Below are positions 4,460 to 35,030 of a DNA stretch of 64,000 nucleotides, one piece after another; position 1 is the stretch's first letter; each line of letters begins with the position of its first letter. Source of the DNA: a virus; the UHGV virus genome UHGV-0367612; one strand, 5' to 3'. Made by a program: the position numbers and the translations under genes. The notes below the pieces were generated by a model. The model was not told the DNA's origin, ran no database searches, and saw only the letters and a list, made by a program, of their open reading frames with translations.

Positions 4460-5198
4460 TTTTGTATATATTATCTATGAACTCTGATCTTAATTGCTTG
4501 TAGAATATCTCTACGTTATTTTTAGCAACACGAGCATTATACCCGTCTTCGCAATATATTTGTTTTAACATTACTTCTTTCAATCTCTCTTTCCAGTTCT
4601 CTGGGATAAAGAAGCTTAATGGAGAGCCCTTGAATTTAAAACTCAAGGCTCTCTCTCGATCGTAAGCGACTATATTTGATGACAAAAGCTCAACTTTCTT
4701 TTCTATAGCTTCTCTGTTATCTATATGATTATCCCTTATAATTTGCTCCAAATAATTCACAACCCTTAATTGGCTTTTAGCAAAAAACATATCAGATAGA
4801 TCATCTACTTGCTTTGAAGAAATCTCATCTGATACCCCCTCTACTAAAGTTCTCAGTAACTGGGTGTGACCTTGTAAAAGGTTTCCTTGATCAATTAAAG
4901 TATTTCTCAACTCAGTTAACTGACCAATGTATTCCTTGTTAAAGGCATCTGATTTCCTGTTGTCCCTTATCATGTTAAGGAACATCACTATAAATCCTAT
5001 AAACAGGATTGCCATGGCAACTACCATGGCTGATTGTTCGTTTATTAACTTTGACATATTACCAACAGCATCTACTGTCTGTTGTAATCCTTCTTGTGGT
5101 GACAGTTGTAAAATCATTTTAGTTTGGTTATTAAAAGATTGGGAGGAGTATAAAAACCAGGCTAAAACTCCTCCCAAGTGGTGTGTGAAAGAACTCAA
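4443..5198 (-). CDS. membrane-anchored coiled-coil protein
   Basis: 251 aa. Hydrophobic helix 'AMVVAMAILFIGFIVMFLNMI' near the N-terminus, followed by a long predicted coiled-coil. Confidence 0.3.
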   Translation of the reverse strand: MSSFTHHLGGVLAWFLYSSQSFNNQTKMILQLSPQEGLQQTVDAVGNMSKLINEQSAMVVAMAILFIGFIVMFLNMIRDNRKSDAFNKEYIGQLTELRNTLIDQGNLLQGHTQLLRTLVEGVSDEISSKQVDDLSDMFFAKSQLRVVNYLEQIIRDNHIDNREAIEKKVELLSSNIVAYDRERALSFKFKGSPLSFFIPENWKERLKEVMLKQIYCEDGYNARVAKNNVEIFYKQLRSEFIDNIYKNVARS

Positions 5199-5224
5199 TT
5201 ATAATTTTTAAAGTCTCGTATCAG

Positions 5225-7024
5225 TTATATTTGCCTAAACCCATCTTCAAAGTTGGATTGTTTAATTACTGTGAATTGGTTCATGTCGTAATAAGTATTT
5301 AAAAGTAACATGTATAATAATATTGTTTTACCATCAGTCTCAGTAATACTATCCCAAGCACCCTCTGTAGTTTCTGCCCCAGATTGTACATTACCTCTTA
5401 GAGCACCTGGGTTTACAAGAAATACCACTGGGTAGTTATTTGTCCATGGTCTATGGGCTGTTACAACTCCTCCCATATTCTTATCTGTATCACCAGTTGA
5501 ATCATACAGAATAGTTAATAGTGCTACTGGATCCTCTACGTCAGTGAATACAAGTTCTTGATTTAAGAGGTCCATAAATACTATTGAACCACTTATCAAA
5601 TTTGTACTACCACCGTTTCTATGATAAGCTGGTAAAGCTTGTAATACCCAATTACTCAAAGTTTGTTGGGTATATGATGATTGTCCACCATATAATATCC
5701 TTAATCTAATATCATATAGTTTGGATGTCTGGGTAATCTTTACAGTGATTGTCTGCTCAGAATCAAATCCAGGTAAGTATGCTACAACTGTGTTGTTACC
5801 AACAATAAAAGCATTCTTTGGTATTAAGAAAACTGTACCAGAACCATCTACATTGAAATTCAATCTACCAAGGTTACAAGCTGTATGTATGTACTCTGTA
5901 CCTCTCACAGTAAACTTATACCCAGTTGCCCCACCTCCCCTTATACTTGAATCTAGAGACCTGTTAATATAAAATTTAATATAATCATCTGTGACAGTAG
6001 ATATGTCAAGTTCTATGGTTGTTGCTTTTTCTCCATTAGGTTTAACCCTGTTATCAATACAATCAAACCTATTGGTTATCATACTAGATATAGACCCACC
6101 ACTACATACAAAAACCCCACTGTGTTTTAAACTATTTATAGGTAAATATCCTCCTGTATATGAACCTATCATATTACCTATATACCTGTTAAATACAATC
6201 TTCTTCTCTGCATCTGTTAATTTTCTATTCCATAATACAAAATCCTGTATATCTCCACACCACCAGTCCTTTGGAGTACCTGTAGTTTGAAAACATCTCC
6301 CTAACCAGATGTTACCGTCCCAACCTCTATCTCTATCATTATAGTTCACATTACCTTTTTGGGCAGTTGTTAAATAAGTACCATACCTATACCCATTAAG
6401 ATACATACCTCTTCCTTCTAATGTACTATCAAACTCTAATAACAGGTGCATCCATATACCCAAAGTTTGTGGCCATACATCTGAGTTTATACAATAACTG
6501 CCATTAACGTTTGGACTCACTTGGTTTTTTGGATATTGTTGGAATTGAAATCCTTTAGATAAATCTTTACCATCTCTTGCTGCTACAGCGTAACCTAATC
6601 CAATAGAATTGTTACCAGAAATAACTCCTCCCATTAATCCATTCCTTGTAGTTTCTTGAGTTACTACTTGAGGATTTATTAACACTGATATAGTGAATGG
6701 TCCAACTACTTTCGCTGCGGCATTTAAGGCTACAGCAAATTGGCACATACATTGAAGTGACTTTCTACCATCTATACCCTCACCCCAAAAGGTAGTACCT
6801 GTAGAACCAATTGGGTTGTTATTATTACCAGAGTAATCTAATAAATCTCCATTTAATGGCATTAATATAGTTGGATTTAATCCTATAATAGGATCGTCTG
6901 GCCACACTTGTACCACCGTGTTACCGGTGGTACATATCCCTATCTTCTTTATGGTTTTCTTTGCCCCAGTGGAATCTACTAACATCCCAGCTTTGAGCGA
7001 TTGATTTGCTATCTTTATTCCCAT
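5225..7024 (-). CDS. tail fiber / receptor-binding protein
   Basis: 599 aa, Gly/Asn/Thr-rich and beta-rich. Sits immediately downstream of the giant fiber gene. Confidence 0.4.
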   Translation of the reverse strand: MGIKIANQSLKAGMLVDSTGAKKTIKKIGICTTGNTVVQVWPDDPIIGLNPTILMPLNGDLLDYSGNNNNPIGSTGTTFWGEGIDGRKSLQCMCQFAVALNAAAKVVGPFTISVLINPQVVTQETTRNGLMGGVISGNNSIGLGYAVAARDGKDLSKGFQFQQYPKNQVSPNVNGSYCINSDVWPQTLGIWMHLLLEFDSTLEGRGMYLNGYRYGTYLTTAQKGNVNYNDRDRGWDGNIWLGRCFQTTGTPKDWWCGDIQDFVLWNRKLTDAEKKIVFNRYIGNMIGSYTGGYLPINSLKHSGVFVCSGGSISSMITNRFDCIDNRVKPNGEKATTIELDISTVTDDYIKFYINRSLDSSIRGGGATGYKFTVRGTEYIHTACNLGRLNFNVDGSGTVFLIPKNAFIVGNNTVVAYLPGFDSEQTITVKITQTSKLYDIRLRILYGGQSSYTQQTLSNWVLQALPAYHRNGGSTNLISGSIVFMDLLNQELVFTDVEDPVALLTILYDSTGDTDKNMGGVVTAHRPWTNNYPVVFLVNPGALRGNVQSGAETTEGAWDSITETDGKTILLYMLLLNTYYDMNQFTVIKQSNFEDGFRQI

Positions 7025-7035
7025 AATATTTCTAT

Positions 7036-10000
7036 TTATCCTACTTCAAAATAGATGTTCCCTGCCGTACCAGTTGTGGGTAATGTAGTTACTATATTTA
7101 AAGTATAACCACCCCACTTTGTTGAATTATCAGCCTTACCATTAAGATCACCTATAAATTTATTAGCGTAAATACTAGCCAAATTATTTGACCTATCACC
7201 TTTCAAGAACCTGTAGTATGATATAGGGTTTGTTACTGCTTTTGTCTTACCTGAAAAGTTAATGTTAAGTATTGTTCCAGCACTACCACTCCCGTTTAAT
7301 ATCCCCACATCTGGGATGAAATTAAATTGGTTCTCACCTACTATAAAATCATTATTGGCATCTTCTCTAGCCACCCCAGATATCTCGGAAGCTGTGTATG
7401 TGGGTTTTGTTGCTGCTTTAGCCCAACTATATACATCACTTGCAGGCATAGATGAAGGGAAATCAGTGATTTGTGATTTGGTATGAGTATGAGCTGATGG
7501 CGTAAAGGTTGATGGTTTTCCAGTTATAGAACCCCAGGCTATTGATGGTTTCACTACAGGAGGAGTTGTCAACTGTGTTACAGCAGATAGATCAGTTAAG
7601 AAACTTACTGTAACTCCAGATAATACAGTATTATATGCTGAGTAACCCCTATCTATCTCATTAACCCATACTTGTGGATAAGCCCATGAGTCACCAGATG
7701 AACCGATTATGATAGCACAATGTCCATTATAATAACCTAACCTTACAGTATACTCATATCCTTCTATTGTACATGTGGTATTCACCCATGAGGAACCTGA
7801 GTAATTATAACCCCAAATATGTATACGTGAAGATTTACCAGTAAAGTAATGAAATATTGTCACAATATAGTGGGCCATCGTTGAAATCCAACCGTACGGA
7901 AGCTCTATTACTATTGCCCCGGTTTTATCTGTACTAGCTACATGTCCCCCTAAATCATGGAATATAGCATTCTCCTCGAATGTATCTGGATTTAATCCCC
8001 TAATAGCTATTTGTTTACCAGCTATAAATCCTCTAGCATCACCTGAAGCTTTACTTATCTCAAAGTCGGGTGTCCTACCCATCATTGAGTTAGCAGTAAC
8101 TCCATTAGTTAAATCCAACCCTGCGTGCCACCTTAACCTTGTCACATTATTTTTTGCCCAAATAGCAACACACTCATTACCTTGAGTATCATACCCTATA
8201 CCTCCACCATAAGCACCTCCCAAATCATTACCCCTAAAGTTTAAGGTTTTACCATTATTAATATTGATATTCCCTTTTGAATATATACCCAATGAAGGTA
8301 CTTTAGTGTAATCTGCCCAACTATCTGATACAAGTAAGTCCTTGATATTAATCCCTTTAGCAGTGTTTCTACCAGCAACTATACGACCTCCACCATCTGA
8401 ATAAGAATACCAACCAAAGTCTGCTGTTGCCCCGATCTGTAATCCAGATATAGCTCTTATTAATCCAGCTGTTATTCCAGCATAAGTACCACCAGTACCG
8501 TTATAAAAATTATAGGTAGTAATGGCTGCTCCATCCTGAGTACCTAACCCATTTCTATAGTTAATAGCTACGGTTGTTTGAGTTTTATTGGCAAAGTTAA
8601 ATTCATTACCATGAGATATCATGTTATTGTCACTTGCTCTAATAGCGAAATCTACATCTCTAGTTAACTCAGATACCTTACTTGGAATTGCCACTGAAAC
8701 AGCTGCAGAACCATTATAGGTTTTGGATTGATATCCTGTAAATGTAAGGGCATAAGGATTGGGTAATGATCCTGGTATACTTGGGATTGTAGGCTTATCA
8801 CTTAAGTCATTATAACTACCAGAAGTAGCTACAGTAGCAAATGTGGGTTTCCCTTGTAGTGTTGCCCAAGTAGGATATGCTGGAAGGTTTCCTGAATGGT
8901 AGATGATTTTTGATCCCCATTGTACTTTATCAGGATACACTCTCAATGTATTTTCACTGCTGTACTCATTACCCTCAGTACCAAAAAATAAGTAATTAGG
9001 TACTTCTCCATTTCCAAAAATACCCAATGTACCTATAACATCCCTACTACCAGTTGCAGCCTTGGTATGTCTAAAATAAAACCCATAAGACCAACCTCCA
9101 GTTCTAGTACACAATGCACTAACAGATTCCCCAAACATGGGGGAGTCACCCTCTTTATAATATTTTGTTAGGTCAGAAGTCTGTACTGGATTAGGTAGGT
9201 TGTAAGCATCCCAAATTTTGTAGTTAACATTATTCCTTCTGTGGATAAGGTCGTTAGCCGCTGATCTTATGTAAGTTGTACCTAGGGATGTACTAATGTA
9301 ATTCTCACTACCATTAAAGGCTAATAGAGCATATCCAGAAGCGTTATATATACCCCCAGTTGTTAAATTTGCCCCACCATCTTTTAACCATAGAGGTCCT
9401 ATATTCCTTCCACCTGCAATAGGGATGTAATTAGCTAAGTCGGTTGTACTTGCAGGAGATGGAAGGTTTAAGGCATCCCAAATGGCATAATTTGTACTAC
9501 CAATCTTGTGTTGTAAAGCTGTATTATTTGCTGATTCTATGTATGTACCACCAGAATTAGAACCAAAGTACTTATTCCCAACACTATCTACACTTAATAA
9601 TTGTTCTGATCCATTACGGAGAGTCCAAGATCTTTGTGGTACATACAAATCACCAGTCATGGCATGAGAAGATCCACCTGATCTAGGGATATAATTAGTT
9701 CTAATATCTGTTAAATCATCAAGGATATTCTGGATAATGTCTGGGTTATTTTGTAAAGCCTCAGCTAATTCTCCCAAAGTATCCAATACATCTGGAGCAT
9801 CACCTATAAGGTCTTGGATTTTCTGAAGTACAAAATCCTCGGTAGCCTTAGCATCCCATGTATCTTTATCCTGTTTGGTTACGTGAACGTTGGCATTTGC
9901 TATGTGAGTAAGTATGGGTTGAATCCTACTCAACTCTGATTGAGTGATAACATCCAGAGTGGTGTCGTCTATTGGGTCTACAGAGATACATACTCTATCA

Positions 10001-23242: not shown

Positions 23243-23441
23243 AACCTGTGGTAAACTGTTAGTAGAGGTAGAAGCTGATTGGTACCAGTTTAATTGGTAT
23301 TACGCTCCGTTAGAGATAAGACCACCATTAAGAGAACTGTTTCCTGGAATTACTCATGAACAGTTCTTGGGTTTGAAATACAGGAAATGTGAGCAATGCA
23401 GGAAACAAAAGAAACAAAAGAAACAAAGGATTTGCATTTAG
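23190..23441 (+). CDS. hypothetical zinc-ribbon protein
   Basis: 83 aa with CxxC...CxxC ('CKTCGK' ... 'CEQCRK'). The start may be internal because it overlaps the upstream ORF by 53 nt. Confidence 0.25.
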   Translation: MKKEKKNTREHPLQVYCKTCGKLLVEVEADWYQFNWYYAPLEIRPPLRELFPGITHEQFLGLKYRKCEQCRKQKKQKKQRICI

Positions 23442-23485
23442 TAAAACGGGATATTATATTTGCATTATAATTAAATAATAAAAAT

Positions 23486-26993: not shown

Positions 26994-27272
26994 ATGAAGT
27001 CAGTAGAAGAGTATTTCTATTTATACTATGATCTAAAAGATGAGATGATAAGGTTATCCAAAGAGGGTAATGATATAAGGAAAGCTTTTATCACCAAAAT
27101 TTACTGTGTCCCAAAGAATGAGGTTAAGAGTAATTATCAGGACCTGAAGAAAATTGTGAGGACTTTTAAACAAGATGGGTTTTGGGCAAAGGCTTCTAAA
27201 AATAGAAATGGGATTTTAAGGATAGTAGTATTTTTCAAAAAACCAAGTATAATAGTTAGGATATTAATATGA
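26994..27272 (+). CDS. hypothetical protein
   Basis: 92-aa ORF, first of the second plus-strand block. Confidence 0.3.
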   Translation: MKSVEEYFYLYYDLKDEMIRLSKEGNDIRKAFITKIYCVPKNEVKSNYQDLKKIVRTFKQDGFWAKASKNRNGILRIVVFFKKPSIIVRILI

Positions 27273-27664
27273 AAATTAAAGTTTTGATTAGGTACTTAGA
27301 CATTGATAAGAAAGGTAATAAGACTTACACTAAAAAACCCATAAGTAAGTTCTCTGCTAAAGTGATAGTTTTAAAAGGTGGGCCATGGCTTGATAAATTG
27401 ATACTGAAGTTTAACAATCAAGAGGTAATGGCGTTCGAGTATAACGAGCAAACTCTTACCTTCCTAAAGAAGATTACTAGTGAGTACTTTGCAGTAACTA
27501 AAGTGTATAGATGTCCATTTTACAGCTATTATCTAGTAAGTCGTTATTCGAAGGAGATAGTATCAAACTTGAGTGATTTACTGAAGCAATGTCATTACAT
27601 GGATTTAATAACAACAGAAGAATATTGGCAAAACCAAATACCCGTAAAGTTATGGAAAGAATAA
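27269..27664 (+). CDS. hypothetical protein
   Basis: 131-aa ORF, 4-nt overlap with the upstream gene. Confidence 0.3.
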   Translation: MKIKVLIRYLDIDKKGNKTYTKKPISKFSAKVIVLKGGPWLDKLILKFNNQEVMAFEYNEQTLTFLKKITSEYFAVTKVYRCPFYSYYLVSRYSKEIVSNLSDLLKQCHYMDLITTEEYWQNQIPVKLWKE

Positions 27665-28053
27665 GTATAGAAGAAGCTAGGGAGATAACCCAGGTAGCAA
27701 AAACAGAGTATGACAAAAAGGTATCTCAACGAATGAAGGATGAGATACTGTGCCTTACTAATAGTATCATTTACCAAGCTAATGGGGGAAAATATGATAC
27801 TCACAATAGTATACGTTTCAGAGATAAAGATGGTGTTACCCTTGACAAATACTGCATGAAAAGTATAGTGTCCTATTTCAAGGATCAAGGTTATAAGGTA
27901 GAATGGGGTGAAAATAACCAATCAGACAGGTACTGGATAAGGATATCTTGGTACAAATCTCCAAAGATCACCTGGTACCAATGGTTGATTCTTATTGGGA
28001 TACCAGCCATGTTAATTTATGGATTTATTAAATTATTGAGTTATGGGATATAA
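27589..28053 (+). CDS. hypothetical membrane-anchored protein
   Basis: 154 aa with C-terminal TM 'WYQWLILIGIPAMLIYGFIKLL'. The start may be internal. Confidence 0.3.
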   Translation: MSLHGFNNNRRILAKPNTRKVMERISIEEAREITQVAKTEYDKKVSQRMKDEILCLTNSIIYQANGGKYDTHNSIRFRDKDGVTLDKYCMKSIVSYFKDQGYKVEWGENNQSDRYWIRISWYKSPKITWYQWLILIGIPAMLIYGFIKLLSYGI

Positions 28054-28402
28054 TGCAAGAAAAGCCTACAAGGATGTAGTGAAATCTGGGATAAACTCCA
28101 AAAGGGATAAGGATAGGTATATTATGTTACAAGAAATCCTGACCAAGATTGAGGGAAGAGCCAAACAAGGTGAAAGGTCAATTGTGATAGAGGAACCCAT
28201 AAATAGTTGGGATTTTATTTTACCGGTAGTGGAGAAGCTAAGAGAATTGGGATTTACAGTAGACCCAAAATTCTTACAATCCAGAGGTTGGGTATTAGCT
28301 ATCTATTGGAATAACAAACCCAGGAATAAAGGAGAAAACGTGATCATTCTGGGATTGGTTTTATTAGTTTTAACCTGGTTAATTTGGTTGATATGGCTTT
28401 AG
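28043..28402 (+). CDS. hypothetical membrane-anchored protein
   Basis: 119 aa with C-terminal TM 'VIILGLVLLVLTWLIWLIWL'. Confidence 0.3.
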   Translation: MGYNARKAYKDVVKSGINSKRDKDRYIMLQEILTKIEGRAKQGERSIVIEEPINSWDFILPVVEKLRELGFTVDPKFLQSRGWVLAIYWNNKPRNKGENVIILGLVLLVLTWLIWLIWL

Positions 28403-28638
28403 ATAGAGATGAAAAACTCCTGAAGAAGATAGCTAAATTCCCATCAAAGAAACAGTGGGATGATTTGGCCTATTCTTGGTTGAAGGAAAGGTTTCCTAAT
28501 GCAGAGGATATAATGATCAGGGAAGCAAAATTCAACCAAGGGATATTCCACGTAGTGGCTTACATCGACTGGCAGAAGGTGAGTTTCACGGTTAATTCAA
28601 CAGCACTTTTGTTTCACCTTATTAAAAAGTATTTATAG
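28384..28638 (+). CDS. hypothetical protein
   Basis: 84-aa ORF. Confidence 0.25.
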   Translation: MVDMALDRDEKLLKKIAKFPSKKQWDDLAYSWLKERFPNAEDIMIREAKFNQGIFHVVAYIDWQKVSFTVNSTALLFHLIKKYL

Positions 28639-28639
28639 T

Positions 28640-28861
28640 ATGGCTTTAGAAATGGACAAGGTCTTAGGTAATATCCTAAAAGAAAGGTTCCCACAATATC
28701 CAATGAGGTTATTGTCCTATACCGATACAGGGACTGGATGGGAAGTAAGGGCTATGGTAAAGAACTCCAACATGGCTACAGTATTAGAGGATGGATTCAA
28801 TATCCTAATCTCAGATAGGGAGGTTTTAATTCACTTAATCCAAAATTATACCTGGATATGA
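28640..28861 (+). CDS. hypothetical protein
   Basis: 73-aa ORF. Confidence 0.25.
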   Translation: MALEMDKVLGNILKERFPQYPMRLLSYTDTGTGWEVRAMVKNSNMATVLEDGFNILISDREVLIHLIQNYTWI

Positions 28862-29067
28862 ACAGGGAAGTTAAATGTGAGTTGGTAGGATCCATATCCC
28901 CAATTATATGTGGGATGTTATTCATATTTGGATACTGGATTGGAGGTGGGAGTAGTGAAGACGTTTACGCTTCAGCAATCCTTTTAACCCTGATCTCAGC
29001 AGTTTGGGGAGGTTTAATGGGTAGTATTTACGGGTCACCAAACGATGGCCCCATTTGTGGGCCGTAA
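28858..29067 (+). CDS. small membrane protein
   Basis: 69 aa, Gly-rich with two hydrophobic helices. Confidence 0.3.
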   Translation: MNREVKCELVGSISPIICGMLFIFGYWIGGGSSEDVYASAILLTLISAVWGGLMGSIYGSPNDGPICGP

Positions 29068-29086
29068 AAAGTGGTGGAAATTTTTT

Positions 29087-29117
29087 GGAGGATATGGATA
29101 ACGTATCCTCTTTTTTG
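29087..29117 (+). terminator. Rho-independent terminator of plus-strand block
   Basis: Hairpin gaggata-N9-tatcctc followed by TTTTTTG. Confidence 0.6.
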
Positions 29118-29277
29118 TATGTATAGGGTGATGGGGTGGCTTTGAATCCTTGTCCTTGATCCTTGTTTGTGGGGCTTGGGAAAGTCGTAGCTGTAGGGGG
29201 GCCGGTCGGTAGGATATAATTAAAAAATAAGTGTTAATTTTTTAGGGGACAAATTAACACTTATCTAATTTAAAAAT

Positions 29278-29388
29278 TTAACGTTTTTCTTTCTTGAAAC
29301 ACACGTACAAAATGCAAACAATAACTAAAATAATAATCTGCATAATGAAAGAAAGTATTTCAATTAATGCGTTTAAAATAGCGTCCAT
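29278..29388 (-). CDS. 36-aa hydrophobic peptide with charged C-terminus (type I toxin-like)
   Basis: Not in the ORF track (below 60 aa). Minus-strand translation is MDAILNALIEILSFIMQIIILVIVCILYVCFKKEKR*. The stop is followed by an 11-bp perfect inverted repeat hairpin (29229-29262) and a T-run. Confidence 0.35.
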   Translation of the reverse strand: MDAILNALIEILSFIMQIIILVIVCILYVCFKKEKR

Positions 29389-29558
29389 ATCTAAAAACAA
29401 TTATAGATAAATATATCATATTTCTTTTTGAAAATTTTTTCATAGAAATATTTTTTTAGTTTTAAAATCTTTTTCTCCATTCTAAAATAATTGAATACAC
29501 GAAACAAATAAAAATGAGTAGTACAAATGTACTACTCACTAATGTAAAAATATTCATT

Positions 29559-29939
29559 TTATTTTGCGGTCTGTTTGAAATTCTTTGATTTTGCAGTCTG
29601 CAAACGTGCAAACAATTTTTTCATTGCGTCCTCTTTTTCGAGTGTCGAAGTATTATATAGCTCTTTTGCGCTATTATACTCTCCTTGCACTTCTACAATC
29701 GTGTCGTGTAGTTCTTTCAACTCGACTAACGTTTTTTTGTCAACGTTAAATGCAAAATCAAGAATGAATTTTTGATACAATTTGCGTACACTCTTTTTTT
29801 CGTGCGTTTTTGAATCCATTTTCGCTAAATTATTAGGAATCTCTAGTCCTAATAATTTATACAACTTTTCGTAGTTAATTTTACCTTTGTTGTTACTACG
29901 ATTTACAACGCTTTTAGAAAATTCTTGAAATAAACTCAT
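29559..29939 (-). CDS. hypothetical protein with non-phage codon usage
   Basis: The likely start is MSLFQEFSKS... because the annotated upstream extension overlaps a hairpin (ggtgaac...gtcacc). Coiled-coil, Lys-rich protein. Frequent ACG/GCG/TCG/CGC codons are absent from the rest of the window. A terminator hairpin agtagtaca-aa-tgtactact (29517-29536) with a T-run follows on the minus strand. Confidence 0.4.
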   Translation of the reverse strand: MSLFQEFSKSVVNRSNNKGKINYEKLYKLLGLEIPNNLAKMDSKTHEKKSVRKLYQKFILDFAFNVDKKTLVELKELHDTIVEVQGEYNSAKELYNTSTLEKEDAMKKLFARLQTAKSKNFKQTAK

Positions 29940-30232
29940 AATATAAATTATTAAAAATAAAAGGTGAACTTTTAAATTTGGTGTCACCTCATAGCCAAAT
30001 TATATTTTTACATTTTTTCAACATTTCAAAGAACTTGTTTTTTTATCGTTTTTCGATATACGAATGTACAATTAATTTTTGAACTACAAAAATATTTGCA
30101 AGAAAAAATCAAATTATTTTCATGAAAAAATTAATTTTATTTTCATTCTAAATTAAATAAAAATCGAAAAATTTTTGATTAAAAATTTGTTTTTGTCAAA
30201 AAAATTTCGTAGATTCAATATATAAAATATCC

Positions 30233-30400
30233 ACCTGCCCGCCTGCCCACCCTATTCCTAATTCCAATCTAGCTCTGGCTTCCGCTCCTAGTCCTGGTAT
30301 CTTCTGAGCCCGCCTACCTTCTTAGCCTTAAATTAAACCCGCCTTCCTATTCCTAACCTATTAACATTAACCCAATAGCTCTCACCTTTCAGTTCTCCGG
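30233..30400. repeat. polypyrimidine (plus-strand) tract with iteron-like direct repeats
   Basis: About 170 nt of almost exclusively C/T on the plus strand. CCCGCCT occurs three times (30238, 30309, 30338). CCTATTCCTAA occurs twice (30252, 30347). Confidence 0.5.
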
Positions 30401-30661
30401 TTAACTGATAAGAAGGCTTTAAGATAACTAGGATATAAGGCCTTATGACCACTAATTATGATATCTAGTTGATCAACTCTTATCAAACATGTAAATATTC
30501 TCATAGAATAACTACTTTTCTTCTAGAAATTCATTCTGGCTGTCCTAAAATGACAGAAAAGCGAGCTTTCATTCAGTCAAACTTTCTCACACAATCAATC
30601 ACAAAAATAGAGTGGCTGTATGGGTCACTCTATCATTACATCTAATACAGCTCTTACAGCC

Positions 30662-31177
30662 TCAGTTCTTTTTCTCAAGCATTTTCACTACCTGATATCC
30701 GACCTTTGCCTGGATAACATCCATCCGGTAATCCTGGAATTTACTGTAGTGGGTGTACTCTTCCAGTTCCCTTGTCTTGATAACCTTCTCAATCCTGTTG
30801 ATGAAATCCTGAACATCAACCTCATATTGTGCCTGATGTAGTACCTGATAGTACTGGGATATCAGATCCGGAATATAGTCGCAGAGCTCATCATCCTCTG
30901 TAACCTCCATAGCCCTCTCATAAACTAAGAGTCCCAACATATTCAGATAAGCTGTTAACCTTGTTTCCGGTACGTTGACTTCCCATATATTATCCGGTAA
31001 ACATCCAAATACATCCATTATGGGTTCCATCTCTTCCCAATCCTGAGGGTCGTAAATCTTGATAGCCTTGAGCCCTGTGATCTTCTCTGCCCAAGCTAAC
31101 AACTCATATTCTCCGGTTGAACCTACAGTTAATAACTTAATTTCCTTGATTCCCTGATTTGCTTGTTCGTTCTCCAT
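30662..31177 (-). CDS. hypothetical acidic protein
   Basis: 171-aa ORF, preceded by a conserved early promoter copy at 31205-31242. Confidence 0.4.
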   Translation of the reverse strand: MENEQANQGIKEIKLLTVGSTGEYELLAWAEKITGLKAIKIYDPQDWEEMEPIMDVFGCLPDNIWEVNVPETRLTAYLNMLGLLVYERAMEVTEDDELCDYIPDLISQYYQVLHQAQYEVDVQDFINRIEKVIKTRELEEYTHYSKFQDYRMDVIQAKVGYQVVKMLEKKN

Positions 31178-31204
31178 AATTTTATTTATTTTAAAAATTA
31201 ATAT

Positions 31205-31242
31205 ATTGCAAATATAATAAACCCTGATTGCTGATGCAAATC
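31205..31242 (-). promoter_or_regulatory. conserved early promoter copy (Bacteroidetes sigma-A type)
   Basis: Plus-strand ttgcaaatataataaaccctgattgctgatgcaaatcc. On the gene strand this reads GGATTTGCA-N-TATATTTGCAA. Confidence 0.55.
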
Positions 31243-31494
31243 CTTTTTAACCCTAATAGGGATCTGAAACCCGCCCACTTATCTTAGAGGCCTTAACATC
31301 ACCAAGCCGAGATTTAGGATAGGGCTGAAGGACCTATCCTCCATGGCTATGGTTCTCTATCCTAATTCTAATCCTTAGCCTGATATCCATAGCCTGACAA
31401 AGCCAAACACTAAAAGTTCTCCCAGTACATTATATAAGTACAAAGGAGAACTGATCAGGCTTGGGTTGTTGGCCTTGATTTGGGGATATGGCTC

Positions 31495-34992: not shown

Positions 34993-35030
34993 ATGCAAAT
35001 ATATAAAACCTGTTTTACTTTTGCAAATCC
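34993..35030 (-). promoter_or_regulatory. conserved early promoter copy
   Basis: Plus-strand atgcaaatatataaaacctgttttacttttgcaaatcc. Identical 39-mer to the copy at 39.5 kb. Confidence 0.6.

Follow-up and report, generated by a model that had tools for sequence, protein, structure and literature searches.

The gp15 protein of phage HK97, a membrane protein encoded by a moron, confers superinfection exclusion, and virulent phages carry early units read from a host promoter, such as gene 0.3 of T7 and the immediate-early genes of T4. Morons, described in lambdoid and Mu-like phages, are autonomous phage units with a promoter, a gene, a terminator and a deviant composition (PMC4378225, citing Hendrix/Juhala). 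Here, an island of ~1 kb with a comparable layout was analyzed at positions 29218-30226 of the virus genome UHGV-0367612; the whole stretch of 64,000 nucleotides (nt) is referred to as the window. The island is placed between two converging operons, each with its own intrinsic terminator. The original prediction, made from this DNA alone, had described it as a self-contained inserted cassette. The comparisons below suggest that it is probably an ancient, fixed, moron-like autonomous operon of Bacteroides phages, which would be transcribed by the host RNA polymerase and would encode host-directed products. Its structural description as a predicted autonomous mini-operon is put forward with good confidence; an accessory function directed at the host, for instance superinfection exclusion or host takeover, is proposed tentatively and by analogy.

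Composition and inheritance of the island

Composition was scanned in 1-kb segments at 100-nt steps across the 64 kb. The GC content of the island was 0.238, compared with 0.370 in the rest of the window, and its CpG observed/expected ratio (o/e) was 1.99 (28 CpG), compared with 0.39 elsewhere. The segment starting at 29201 had both the lowest GC content and the highest CpG o/e of all segments. The symmetrised dinucleotide distance delta* (x1000) from the island to the backbone was 369, the maximum for the window, against a median of 88. ORF126, the 126-amino-acid (aa) open reading frame (ORF) of the island, had a CpG o/e of 1.90, outside the range of 0.16-0.94 found in 41 backbone ORFs. The foreign, AT-rich composition, the abrupt boundaries and the contrast between CpG depletion in the phage and its frequency in the island were thus all found as originally predicted. 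When resolved by codon context, CpG o/e in the backbone was 0.44, 0.26 and 0.43; depletion in all three contexts is therefore a property at the dinucleotide level and not one of codon choice. GpC was low too in the backbone (0.70).

Relatives of this locus were collected by two routes; loci and contigs of relatives carry L-numbers (L001-L008, L015, L016, L022, L042 and others). All loci fetched through homologues of ORF126 showed an AT-rich, CpG-rich island between the same converging operons. Among relatives fetched through the flanking 497-aa gene, counting contigs with enough sequence beyond that gene to judge, the island was present in all 14 (4/4 from IMG/VR and 10/10 from metagenomes), and no empty site was found in any of them. 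The same segment, with the same composition and at the same locus, is carried by related phages, which contradicts the proposed insertion. Divergence of the island was in step with divergence of its flank, ORF126 identities of 94, 86, 71 and 71% pairing with flank identities of 93, 86, 68 and 62%. No full-length ORF126 homologue was found in 185,579 species genomes, which yielded only a 22-residue match, and GenBank phage proteins gave no match beyond one of 36 residues (E = 2), so no donor can be named. Because the locus is the same everywhere, all 14 relatives carry the island, island and flank diverge jointly and no donor is found, these data indicate that the island is ancestral and vertically inherited, and not a recent insertion.

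A profile search of 1.84 billion representative proteins returned just two distant full-length homologues of ORF126, and a follow-up search added a third distant lineage. These homologues, in L015, L016 and L022, are 42-48% identical and lie in backbones of 42-50% GC. In each locus, an AT-rich promoter region with an abrupt edge is followed by a CTTTGAA box, the ORF126 homologue and different small ORFs, and the 3' part consists of a hairpin with GTCCCC, a recognizable boundary block and a C/A-rich spacer. The G-rich spacer and GCTGTA(G) repeats were seen in L015 and L022 as well; the short L016 contig starts inside the AT-rich region. Collectively, these data indicate that the architecture of the island predates the phage family.

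An analogous AT-rich, CpG-rich unit was observed at 1420-2680 of MT121964.1 (L024), in which exactly one scanned segment had both the lowest GC and the highest CpG. Its canonical promoter, TTTG-N20-TATATTTG, is accompanied by two ORFs, one of 109 aa (basic and helical) and one of 56 aa, and by a terminator of the form TAGGGG...GTCCCCTA followed by a T-run. No ORF126 homologue was detected in MT121964, and the unit is a positional analogue only. The adjoining converging 161-aa ORF looks, by eye only, like an HNH-type homing endonuclease, and a DNA cytosine methyltransferase is annotated in the record (4682-5677).

Synonymous sites between the main lineages were near saturation (proportion of synonymous differences, pS, 0.76-0.87), and CpG o/e was 1.1-1.9 in the island ORFs of every lineage and 0.3-0.8 in the flanks. 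Since the CpG contrast is kept while synonymous sites are saturated, it is a maintained equilibrium and not the fading trace of a transfer. The comparison between lineages thus indicates that the foreign composition is an equilibrium state held in a vertically inherited segment. The locus offers a natural case in which a 1-kb segment with a CpG o/e above 1, inside a backbone of 0.4, is co-inherited with it at a different mutation-selection equilibrium, and explaining its composition would reveal what drives CpG avoidance in these gut phages.

The compositional contrast could itself be a functional signal, the backbone being purged of CpG in all contexts and the insulated island being exempt or targeted. 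Candidates for a CpG-reading host or phage factor are a nuclease, a methylation-dependent system, Rho and nucleoid proteins; such a system would use the UUUGUCCCC apex of the terminator, the boundary block and the inverted GCTGTA repeats as recognition or insulation elements. Taken as a whole, this proposal is improbable. If it were true, the fate of the island would differ from that of the genome, for example as an immediate-early unit that is shut off fast or as a decoy.

A recent mobile cassette, whether a classical moron or an element like an insertion sequence (IS) or a miniature inverted-repeat transposable element (MITE), with G-rich terminal inverted repeats ending in GGATAT, would account for the foreign composition, the abrupt boundaries and the presence of a promoter and a terminator. 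Mirror-like boundaries had been predicted, and the in-register identity of the flanks (17/30, p ~0.003) agrees with them; however, local alignment of the 60-nt flanks scored 11 against 8.0 +/- 1.5 for shuffles (p ~0.07), so that terminal inverted repeats are marginal by this measure. The hexamer GGATAT/ATATCC has 108 copies in the window, ~3.5 times expectation, and the right-hand GGATAT is absent in relatives of ~70% identity. No transposase or recombinase was found at the island and no transposase domain in the domain searches; no second copy of the island was found in the window, in GenBank phages or in the 185,579 species genomes. Empty sites were lacking in all 14 relatives, the island diverges with its flanking gene, and a recent arrival is ruled out by synonymous saturation at unchanged composition. 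A recent mobile cassette is therefore extremely unlikely. Of the self-contained inserted cassette, the promoter-like block, the terminator and the foreign composition stand, while insertion and mobility do not. A segment of foreign composition with a separate promoter and terminator is commonly taken for a recent horizontal acquisition; that reading is wrong here, which calls for caution in annotation.

An assembly artefact was rejected as an explanation, since more than 20 assemblies made independently contain the island. Host DNA was sampled on a small scale through a Bacteroides typA gene on L042, which had a GC content of 0.487 and a CpG o/e of 1.19; thus, host DNA is not CpG-depleted. The delta* of the island to this host sample was 211, compared with 369 to the backbone, placing the island nearer the host while it resembles neither. 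Arginine was encoded by CGT/CGC in 91% of cases in typA and by AGA/AGG in 80% of cases in the backbone. ORF126 of the window uses CGT/CGC only, but in just three codons, and the island genes pooled over lineages reach only ~60% CGN. The idea of host-like codon usage was therefore only partly borne out and is weakened. L042 (OHCX01001064.1) is an 8.3-kb human-gut contig that runs as phage sequence through ORF126, pepA and pepB into pepC and, after ...TATATTGCAA, switches to a Bacteroides typA promoter and gene (5423-8326), the TypA protein cluster being named 'uncultured Bacteroides sp.' The switch reflects either a chimeric assembly or a genuine junction of phage and host DNA.

Genes and expression signals

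Alignment of relatives and comparison of ORFs at 13 loci identified four conserved minus-strand ORFs in the island (Table 1). Two minus-strand genes had been predicted; both exist, as ORF126 and pepC, but pepA and pepB had been missed. ORF126 is the sole island gene that is constant across lineages. Its AlphaFold2 model, built from a 14-sequence alignment, had a predicted local distance difference test score (pLDDT) of 78 and a predicted template modelling score (pTM) of 0.69, and neither this model nor searches including Pfam, PHROGs and PADLOC matched ORF126 to a known fold or family. The start of pepB overlaps the end of pepA in a different frame, pepB and pepC are each present in 13/13 close relatives, and the C-termini of pepA and pepC are both basic. 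Ratios of nonsynonymous to synonymous differences (pN/pS) were below 1 throughout, at 0.21-0.28 for ORF126, 0.20-0.79 for pepA, 0.10-0.43 for pepB and 0.13-0.52 for pepC; ~70% of the island is protein-coding and under purifying selection. The three peptides and the neighbouring small ORFs matched no Pfam, PHROGs or PADLOC family, and a Pfam search of the peptides at E <= 1 gave only chance matches to transmembrane segments under the cutoff.

Table 1. Features of the island and its surroundings, with positions in the window
Feature	Position	Strand	Description
Backbone promoter copy	23432-23462	+	GGATTTGCA-N17-TATATTTGCATT
Plus-strand operon terminator	29087..29117	+	hairpin GGAGGATA...TATCCTC, then T-run; -14.3 kcal/mol
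Left spacer	29118..29217	+	~100 nt; G 39%, C 13%; C-rich on island sense strand
Distal block	29184-29218	+	GTCGTAGCTGT-GGGGGG-CCGGT-CGGTAGGATATA; conserved
Island terminator	29221..29264	-	14-bp AT-rich stem, 29227-29240 / 29251-29264; U-run 29221-29226
pepC	29278..29388	-	36 aa, single-pass hydrophobic, MDAILNALIEILSFIMQIIILVIVCILYVCFKKEKR; grand average of hydropathy (GRAVY) 1.51
pepB	29391..29480	-	29 aa, basic, isoelectric point (pI) 9.7, MEKKILKLKKYFYEKIFKKKYDIFIYNCF
pepA	29462..29557	-	31 aa, hydrophobic, ends EWRKRF; GRAVY 1.38
ORF126	29559..29939	-	126 aa, basic (pI 9.6), all-helical orphan
5' leader	29940..30083	-	contains GTTCTTTGAAA box, second -7 box and leader hairpin
Leader hairpin	29975-30001	-	AATTTGG/CCAAATT
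Promoter-like core	30084..30108	-	TTTTTTCTTGCAAATATTTTTGTAG; invariant across 6 aligned relatives
-7 motif TAnnTTTG	30087-30094	-	TATTTTTG; invariant in relatives; also in L015
Upstream region	30109..30226	-	~16% GC; three repeats AAATTTTT-N3-4-CAAAA at 30159-30207
Right spacer	30227..30608	-	non-coding, ~380 nt; G 28%, C 12%; G-richest beside island
Right-spacer conserved blocks	30264-30279; 30368-30385	-	GCCAGAGCTAGATTGG; GTGAGAGCTATTGGGTTA
Upstream minus-strand operon terminator	30609-30631	-	AGAGTGAC...GTCACTCT + T-run
GCTGTA-type repeats	30637-30660	-	9-nt period; directly 3' of 171-aa ORF stop
Backbone promoters, 10 copies	31209, 34996, 35891, 39503, 41225, 41726, 44049, 45455, 47650, 58545	-	

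The peptides bear on two other explanations. Two conserved hydrophobic peptides (29-43 aa) with basic C-termini have a toxin-like size and shape, and in a type I toxin-antitoxin or addiction module one or both would be membrane toxins restrained by an antisense RNA, and the module would stabilise the phage in a plasmid-like carrier state. Extrachromosomal persistence is speculated upon in the 'Flandersviridae' section of PMC8008677, which concerns a candidate family that this phage fits (see below), and the sole match in an Rfam scan was to ctRNA_pT181 at 29502-29576. However, this match is far under threshold (E 0.37, 29 bits against a 56-bit cutoff), no Pfam toxin family was matched, and no TAnnTTTG motif occurs on the antisense (plus) strand across 29218-29560. 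The peptides are also placed for co-transcription behind the 126-aa gene and not as a stand-alone locus, and L015, L016 and MT121964 have unrelated small ORFs in their place. A toxin-antitoxin function is thus unlikely. In a lysis-timing cassette, the transmembrane peptides would be holin/antiholin-like or lysis-inhibition factors. Such a role would suit two single-pass membrane peptides next to a plus-strand operon that encodes several small proteins with C-terminal hydrophobic segments. To our knowledge, however, characterised holins are longer than these peptides of 29-43 aa; neither an endolysin nor a spanin was identified in the neighbourhood, expression of the unit looks constitutive or early and not late, and the distant lineages do not conserve the peptides, making this role highly unlikely.

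A hairpin terminator had been predicted for each gene. The hairpin after ORF126 is real (29513-29540; -15.8 kcal/mol, z -4.0 in the window), but it lies inside the conserved pepA. The closer relatives keep it, with a compensatory G:C to A:U change in L004; the L001 lineage, at ~70% identity, lacks the hairpin. At most, it is possibly a lineage-specific attenuator.

Promoters of Bacteroidota are of the -33 TTTG / -7 TAnnTTTG type. The TTTTTTCTTGCAAATATTTTTGTAG block upstream of ORF126 is a predicted promoter of this type, an assignment that is only probable because the -33 spacing is non-canonical. A second -7 box, TACATTCG at 30061-30068, has the form TAyATTTG in relatives. The leader that would follow is roughly 100-150 nt long, and its GTTCTTTGAAA box (30024-30034) is invariant; L022 has the identical sequence, and those of L015 and L016 are nearly so. 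Further upstream, the AAATTTTT-N-CAAAA (T5-N4-A5) repeats recur in similar form in L005, L001, L015 and L022; the three copies are short, with an irregular spacing of 19 and 14 nt, and may be UP-element or operator-like sites.

The same DNA could also serve as a replication origin, with an AT-rich unwinding element, the T5-N4-A5 repeats as initiator sites, and activation or priming by transcription coming from the flanks or from the island promoter. It includes the most AT-rich DNA of the window (16% GC, 30001-30200), its repeat motifs recur in relatives, transcription polarity and GC skew switch here, and the architecture is conserved whatever the cargo. The extent of coding sequence under purifying selection speaks against an origin, as do the short and irregular repeats and the lack of an adjoining initiator gene. 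The skew switch is explained by gene orientation, and G-rich RNA strands point inward on both sides, an arrangement ill-suited to bidirectional priming. An origin is thus an unlikely explanation, and the earlier idea of an oriLyt-associated locus finds little support.

The stem of the island terminator is complementary at 14/14 positions (-14.8 kcal/mol) and carries the apical loop UUUGUCCCCUAAA (GTCCCCTA at 29243-29250). Equivalent terminators in all lineages fold at -14 to -23 kcal/mol. Because the stems are wholly different between lineages and yet UUUGUCCCC(U/C)A is kept in seven lineages including MT121964, at the apex or on the 3' side of the hairpin, its retention suggests sequence-specific recognition beyond termination. 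A motif scan of IMG/VR for TTGTCCCCTANAAAATT returned the known family only, plus a handful of matches at chance level. A direct similarity of 27 nt (74%) with the shared motif AATTTTTTRGRGGA was observed on the plus strand between 29066-29092, which follows the stop of the plus-strand operon, and 29223-29249, which is one arm of the island terminator. The motif AAATTTTTTGG, 3' of the stop of the converging operon, is recognizable also in L015 and L016.

For the moron-like operon that we favor, the following mechanism is proposed. The host sigma-A RNA polymerase would transcribe the island apart from the flanking operons, and the upstream repeats and long leader would permit separate regulation. 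In the lineage of the window, the pepA hairpin may attenuate expression of the downstream peptides. The single-pass peptides pepA and pepC would act in the host cytoplasmic membrane, with ORF126 and pepB as soluble basic partners, and their role would be superinfection exclusion or host takeover, as with moron-encoded membrane proteins. The spacers on either side of the island would be directional insulators: transcripts leaving the island either way would be C-rich and G-poor, of the Rho-substrate type, and insulation would shield the converging operons from antisense transcription born in AT-rich DNA.

Several points weigh against this mechanism and against the operon on which it is built. 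The -33 TTTG lies 15 nt before the first -7 box and 18 nt before the second, compared with 20 nt in the backbone promoters (11/11), and the second box is degenerate in the window (TACATTCG). Use of the promoter, its start site and its timing are all points that we infer. Homology between ORF126 and the 109-aa protein of MT121964 was not detected (hhalign probability 2-5%). Distant lineages carry different small ORFs 3' of ORF126, so that the conserved core does not include the three peptides. The host-directed membrane function is a guess from size and hydrophobicity, because ORF126 and the peptides match no family or fold. Finally, the Rho-insulator idea was drawn from base composition alone, and the skew of the flanks also follows the general bias of G over C.

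Boundaries and neighbouring operons

On the sense strand of the island, the left boundary block reads CCTACCG..CCCC..TACAGCTACGAC; in the form CCTACCG..CCCC..TACAGCyAC it is conserved in L001-L008 and can be recognized in L015, L016 and L022. The left spacer in which it lies varies among relatives in length and internal repeats. Three tandem TCCTTG heptamers had been reported there; three copies are present (29147, 29153 and 29160), but the repeated core is a hexamer and the spacing is 6 and 7 nt. The triplet (29147-29165) is not conserved in relatives. G-quadruplex potential had also been ascribed to this boundary, and no canonical four-run motif was found in either flank with loops up to 20 nt. 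On sense strands across the phage, G is commoner than C. Because the two operons converge and their sense strands favor G over C, the inward-facing G-rich flanks partly continue the strand bias of these operons.

The converging plus-strand operon ends with a gene at 28858-29067, and in relatives its terminator has a conserved stem and a variable loop. This operon (26994-29067) was observed to encode seven small orphan proteins, several with C-terminal hydrophobic segments; they had no family match, and the gene content of the operon differs among relatives.

The right spacer held no conserved ORF, a 40-aa ORF at 30382-30504 being broken in L001, and no Rfam match. RNAalifold applied to a 435-nt right spacer gave -15.7 kcal/mol with a covariation term of -0.23, and nothing credible was found besides the terminator. 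The GCTGTA repeats beyond this terminator have the opposite orientation to the GCTGTA copy in the left boundary block, at 29190 (+). The loop of the terminator at 30609-30631 occurs in both orientations among relatives, CCCATACAG and CTGTATGGG (alignment A4, columns 25-49), which looks like the result of an inversion between the two arms of the stem. One or two small genes separate the 497-aa gene from the island (30662-31494 in the window, compared with 4276-5277 in L005), and the distance from the end of the 497-aa gene to ORF126 is 1357-2203 nt among relatives. In L014, unrelated sequence takes the place of approximately the first 300 nt of the right spacer. Upstream of the conserved end of the spacer, the region is therefore mosaic.

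The phage and comparison with known systems

The window encodes a major capsid protein, a portal, a protease, a family A DNA polymerase, an SbcC-like protein and an ATP-dependent ligase, and is the genome of a tailed phage. No DNA match to the window was found among GenBank phages in near and distant search modes, and a scan of the window for transfer RNAs found none. The portal is 37% identical to those of MT121964.1 and of one human faecal contig. Many metagenomic contigs, 82-85 kb long and in several cases labelled human gut, carry homologues of ORF126, and a BFVD protein 100% identical to ORF126 (UniProt A0A8S5VN19) carries the label 'Ackermannviridae sp.'

Eleven stereotyped promoters of the form GGATTTGCA-N17-TATATTTGCATT were found in the backbone, ~25-35 nt 5' of start codons. 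Because all 11 are of the -33/-7 type, they support a Bacteroidota host and predicted use of the host RNA polymerase. The consensus of these promoters exceeds the host motifs, with GGAT upstream and GCATT downstream; the copies at 34996 and 39503 are identical over a 31-nt core, and the structural module (1-21 kb) is without any of the 11.

The candidate family 'Flandersviridae' comprises phages that infect Bacteroides and Parabacteroides, are abundant in the human gut and may be obligately lytic, with a colinear genome of ~85 kb, a PolA replication module and a contractile-tail structural block, according to the section on the family in PMC8008677. Because size, colinearity, PolA and host type agree with that description, the present phage family of ~84 kb fits 'Flandersviridae' as published. 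That section ranks phages of this type among the commonest in the human gut and, within a limited literature check, does not mention the island. The early biology of such gut phages is almost wholly uncharted, and the island is compact enough to be deleted or expressed directly in Bacteroides. Collectively, these data describe a conserved orphan mini-operon whose foreign composition is stably maintained, in a phage family that is probably very common in the gut.

Compared with IS elements and MITEs, the island lacks conserved, significant terminal inverted repeats, and neither a transposase nor copies nor empty sites were found. It shares with type I toxin-antitoxin loci (hok/sok, fst, ldr, tisB) hydrophobic peptides of ~30-40 aa whose C-termini are charged, and the coding DNA is in both cases AT-rich and has strong hairpins. 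In contrast to these loci, no antisense promoter or RNA was detected by the motif and Rfam scans and no family was matched; the island peptides follow a 126-aa gene within a single operon, and distant lineages do not conserve them. With the early units of T7 and T4 it has in common a short gene set, a host-type promoter (predicted for the island), its own terminator and small orphan proteins that are likely host-directed; unlike the situation in those units, backbone genes of the replication module also use host-type promoters (11 copies), so that the island is not alone in relying on the host polymerase, and no known early protein is homologous to the island proteins.

The closest likeness is to morons. 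Like these, the island is an independent unit between phage genes, with its own promoter (predicted in the island), small gene(s) and own terminator, a composition unlike that of its neighbours, no recognizable role in a core module, and small products that include membrane peptides. Its separate terminator and different composition were found directly, presence/absence polymorphism was not found, and three of the four features of a moron are present or probably present. Among close relatives, a classical moron occurs in some genomes and is missing from others; it is read as a recent acquisition and is usually expressed from a repressed prophage. The island, in contrast, is fixed across all relatives examined and has come down vertically through synonymous saturation in a probably lytic family; it keeps its deviant composition, with conserved flanks, boundary block and hairpin apex. 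Thus, the island can be described as working like a moron while being a fixed, ancient variant with a conserved flanking architecture.

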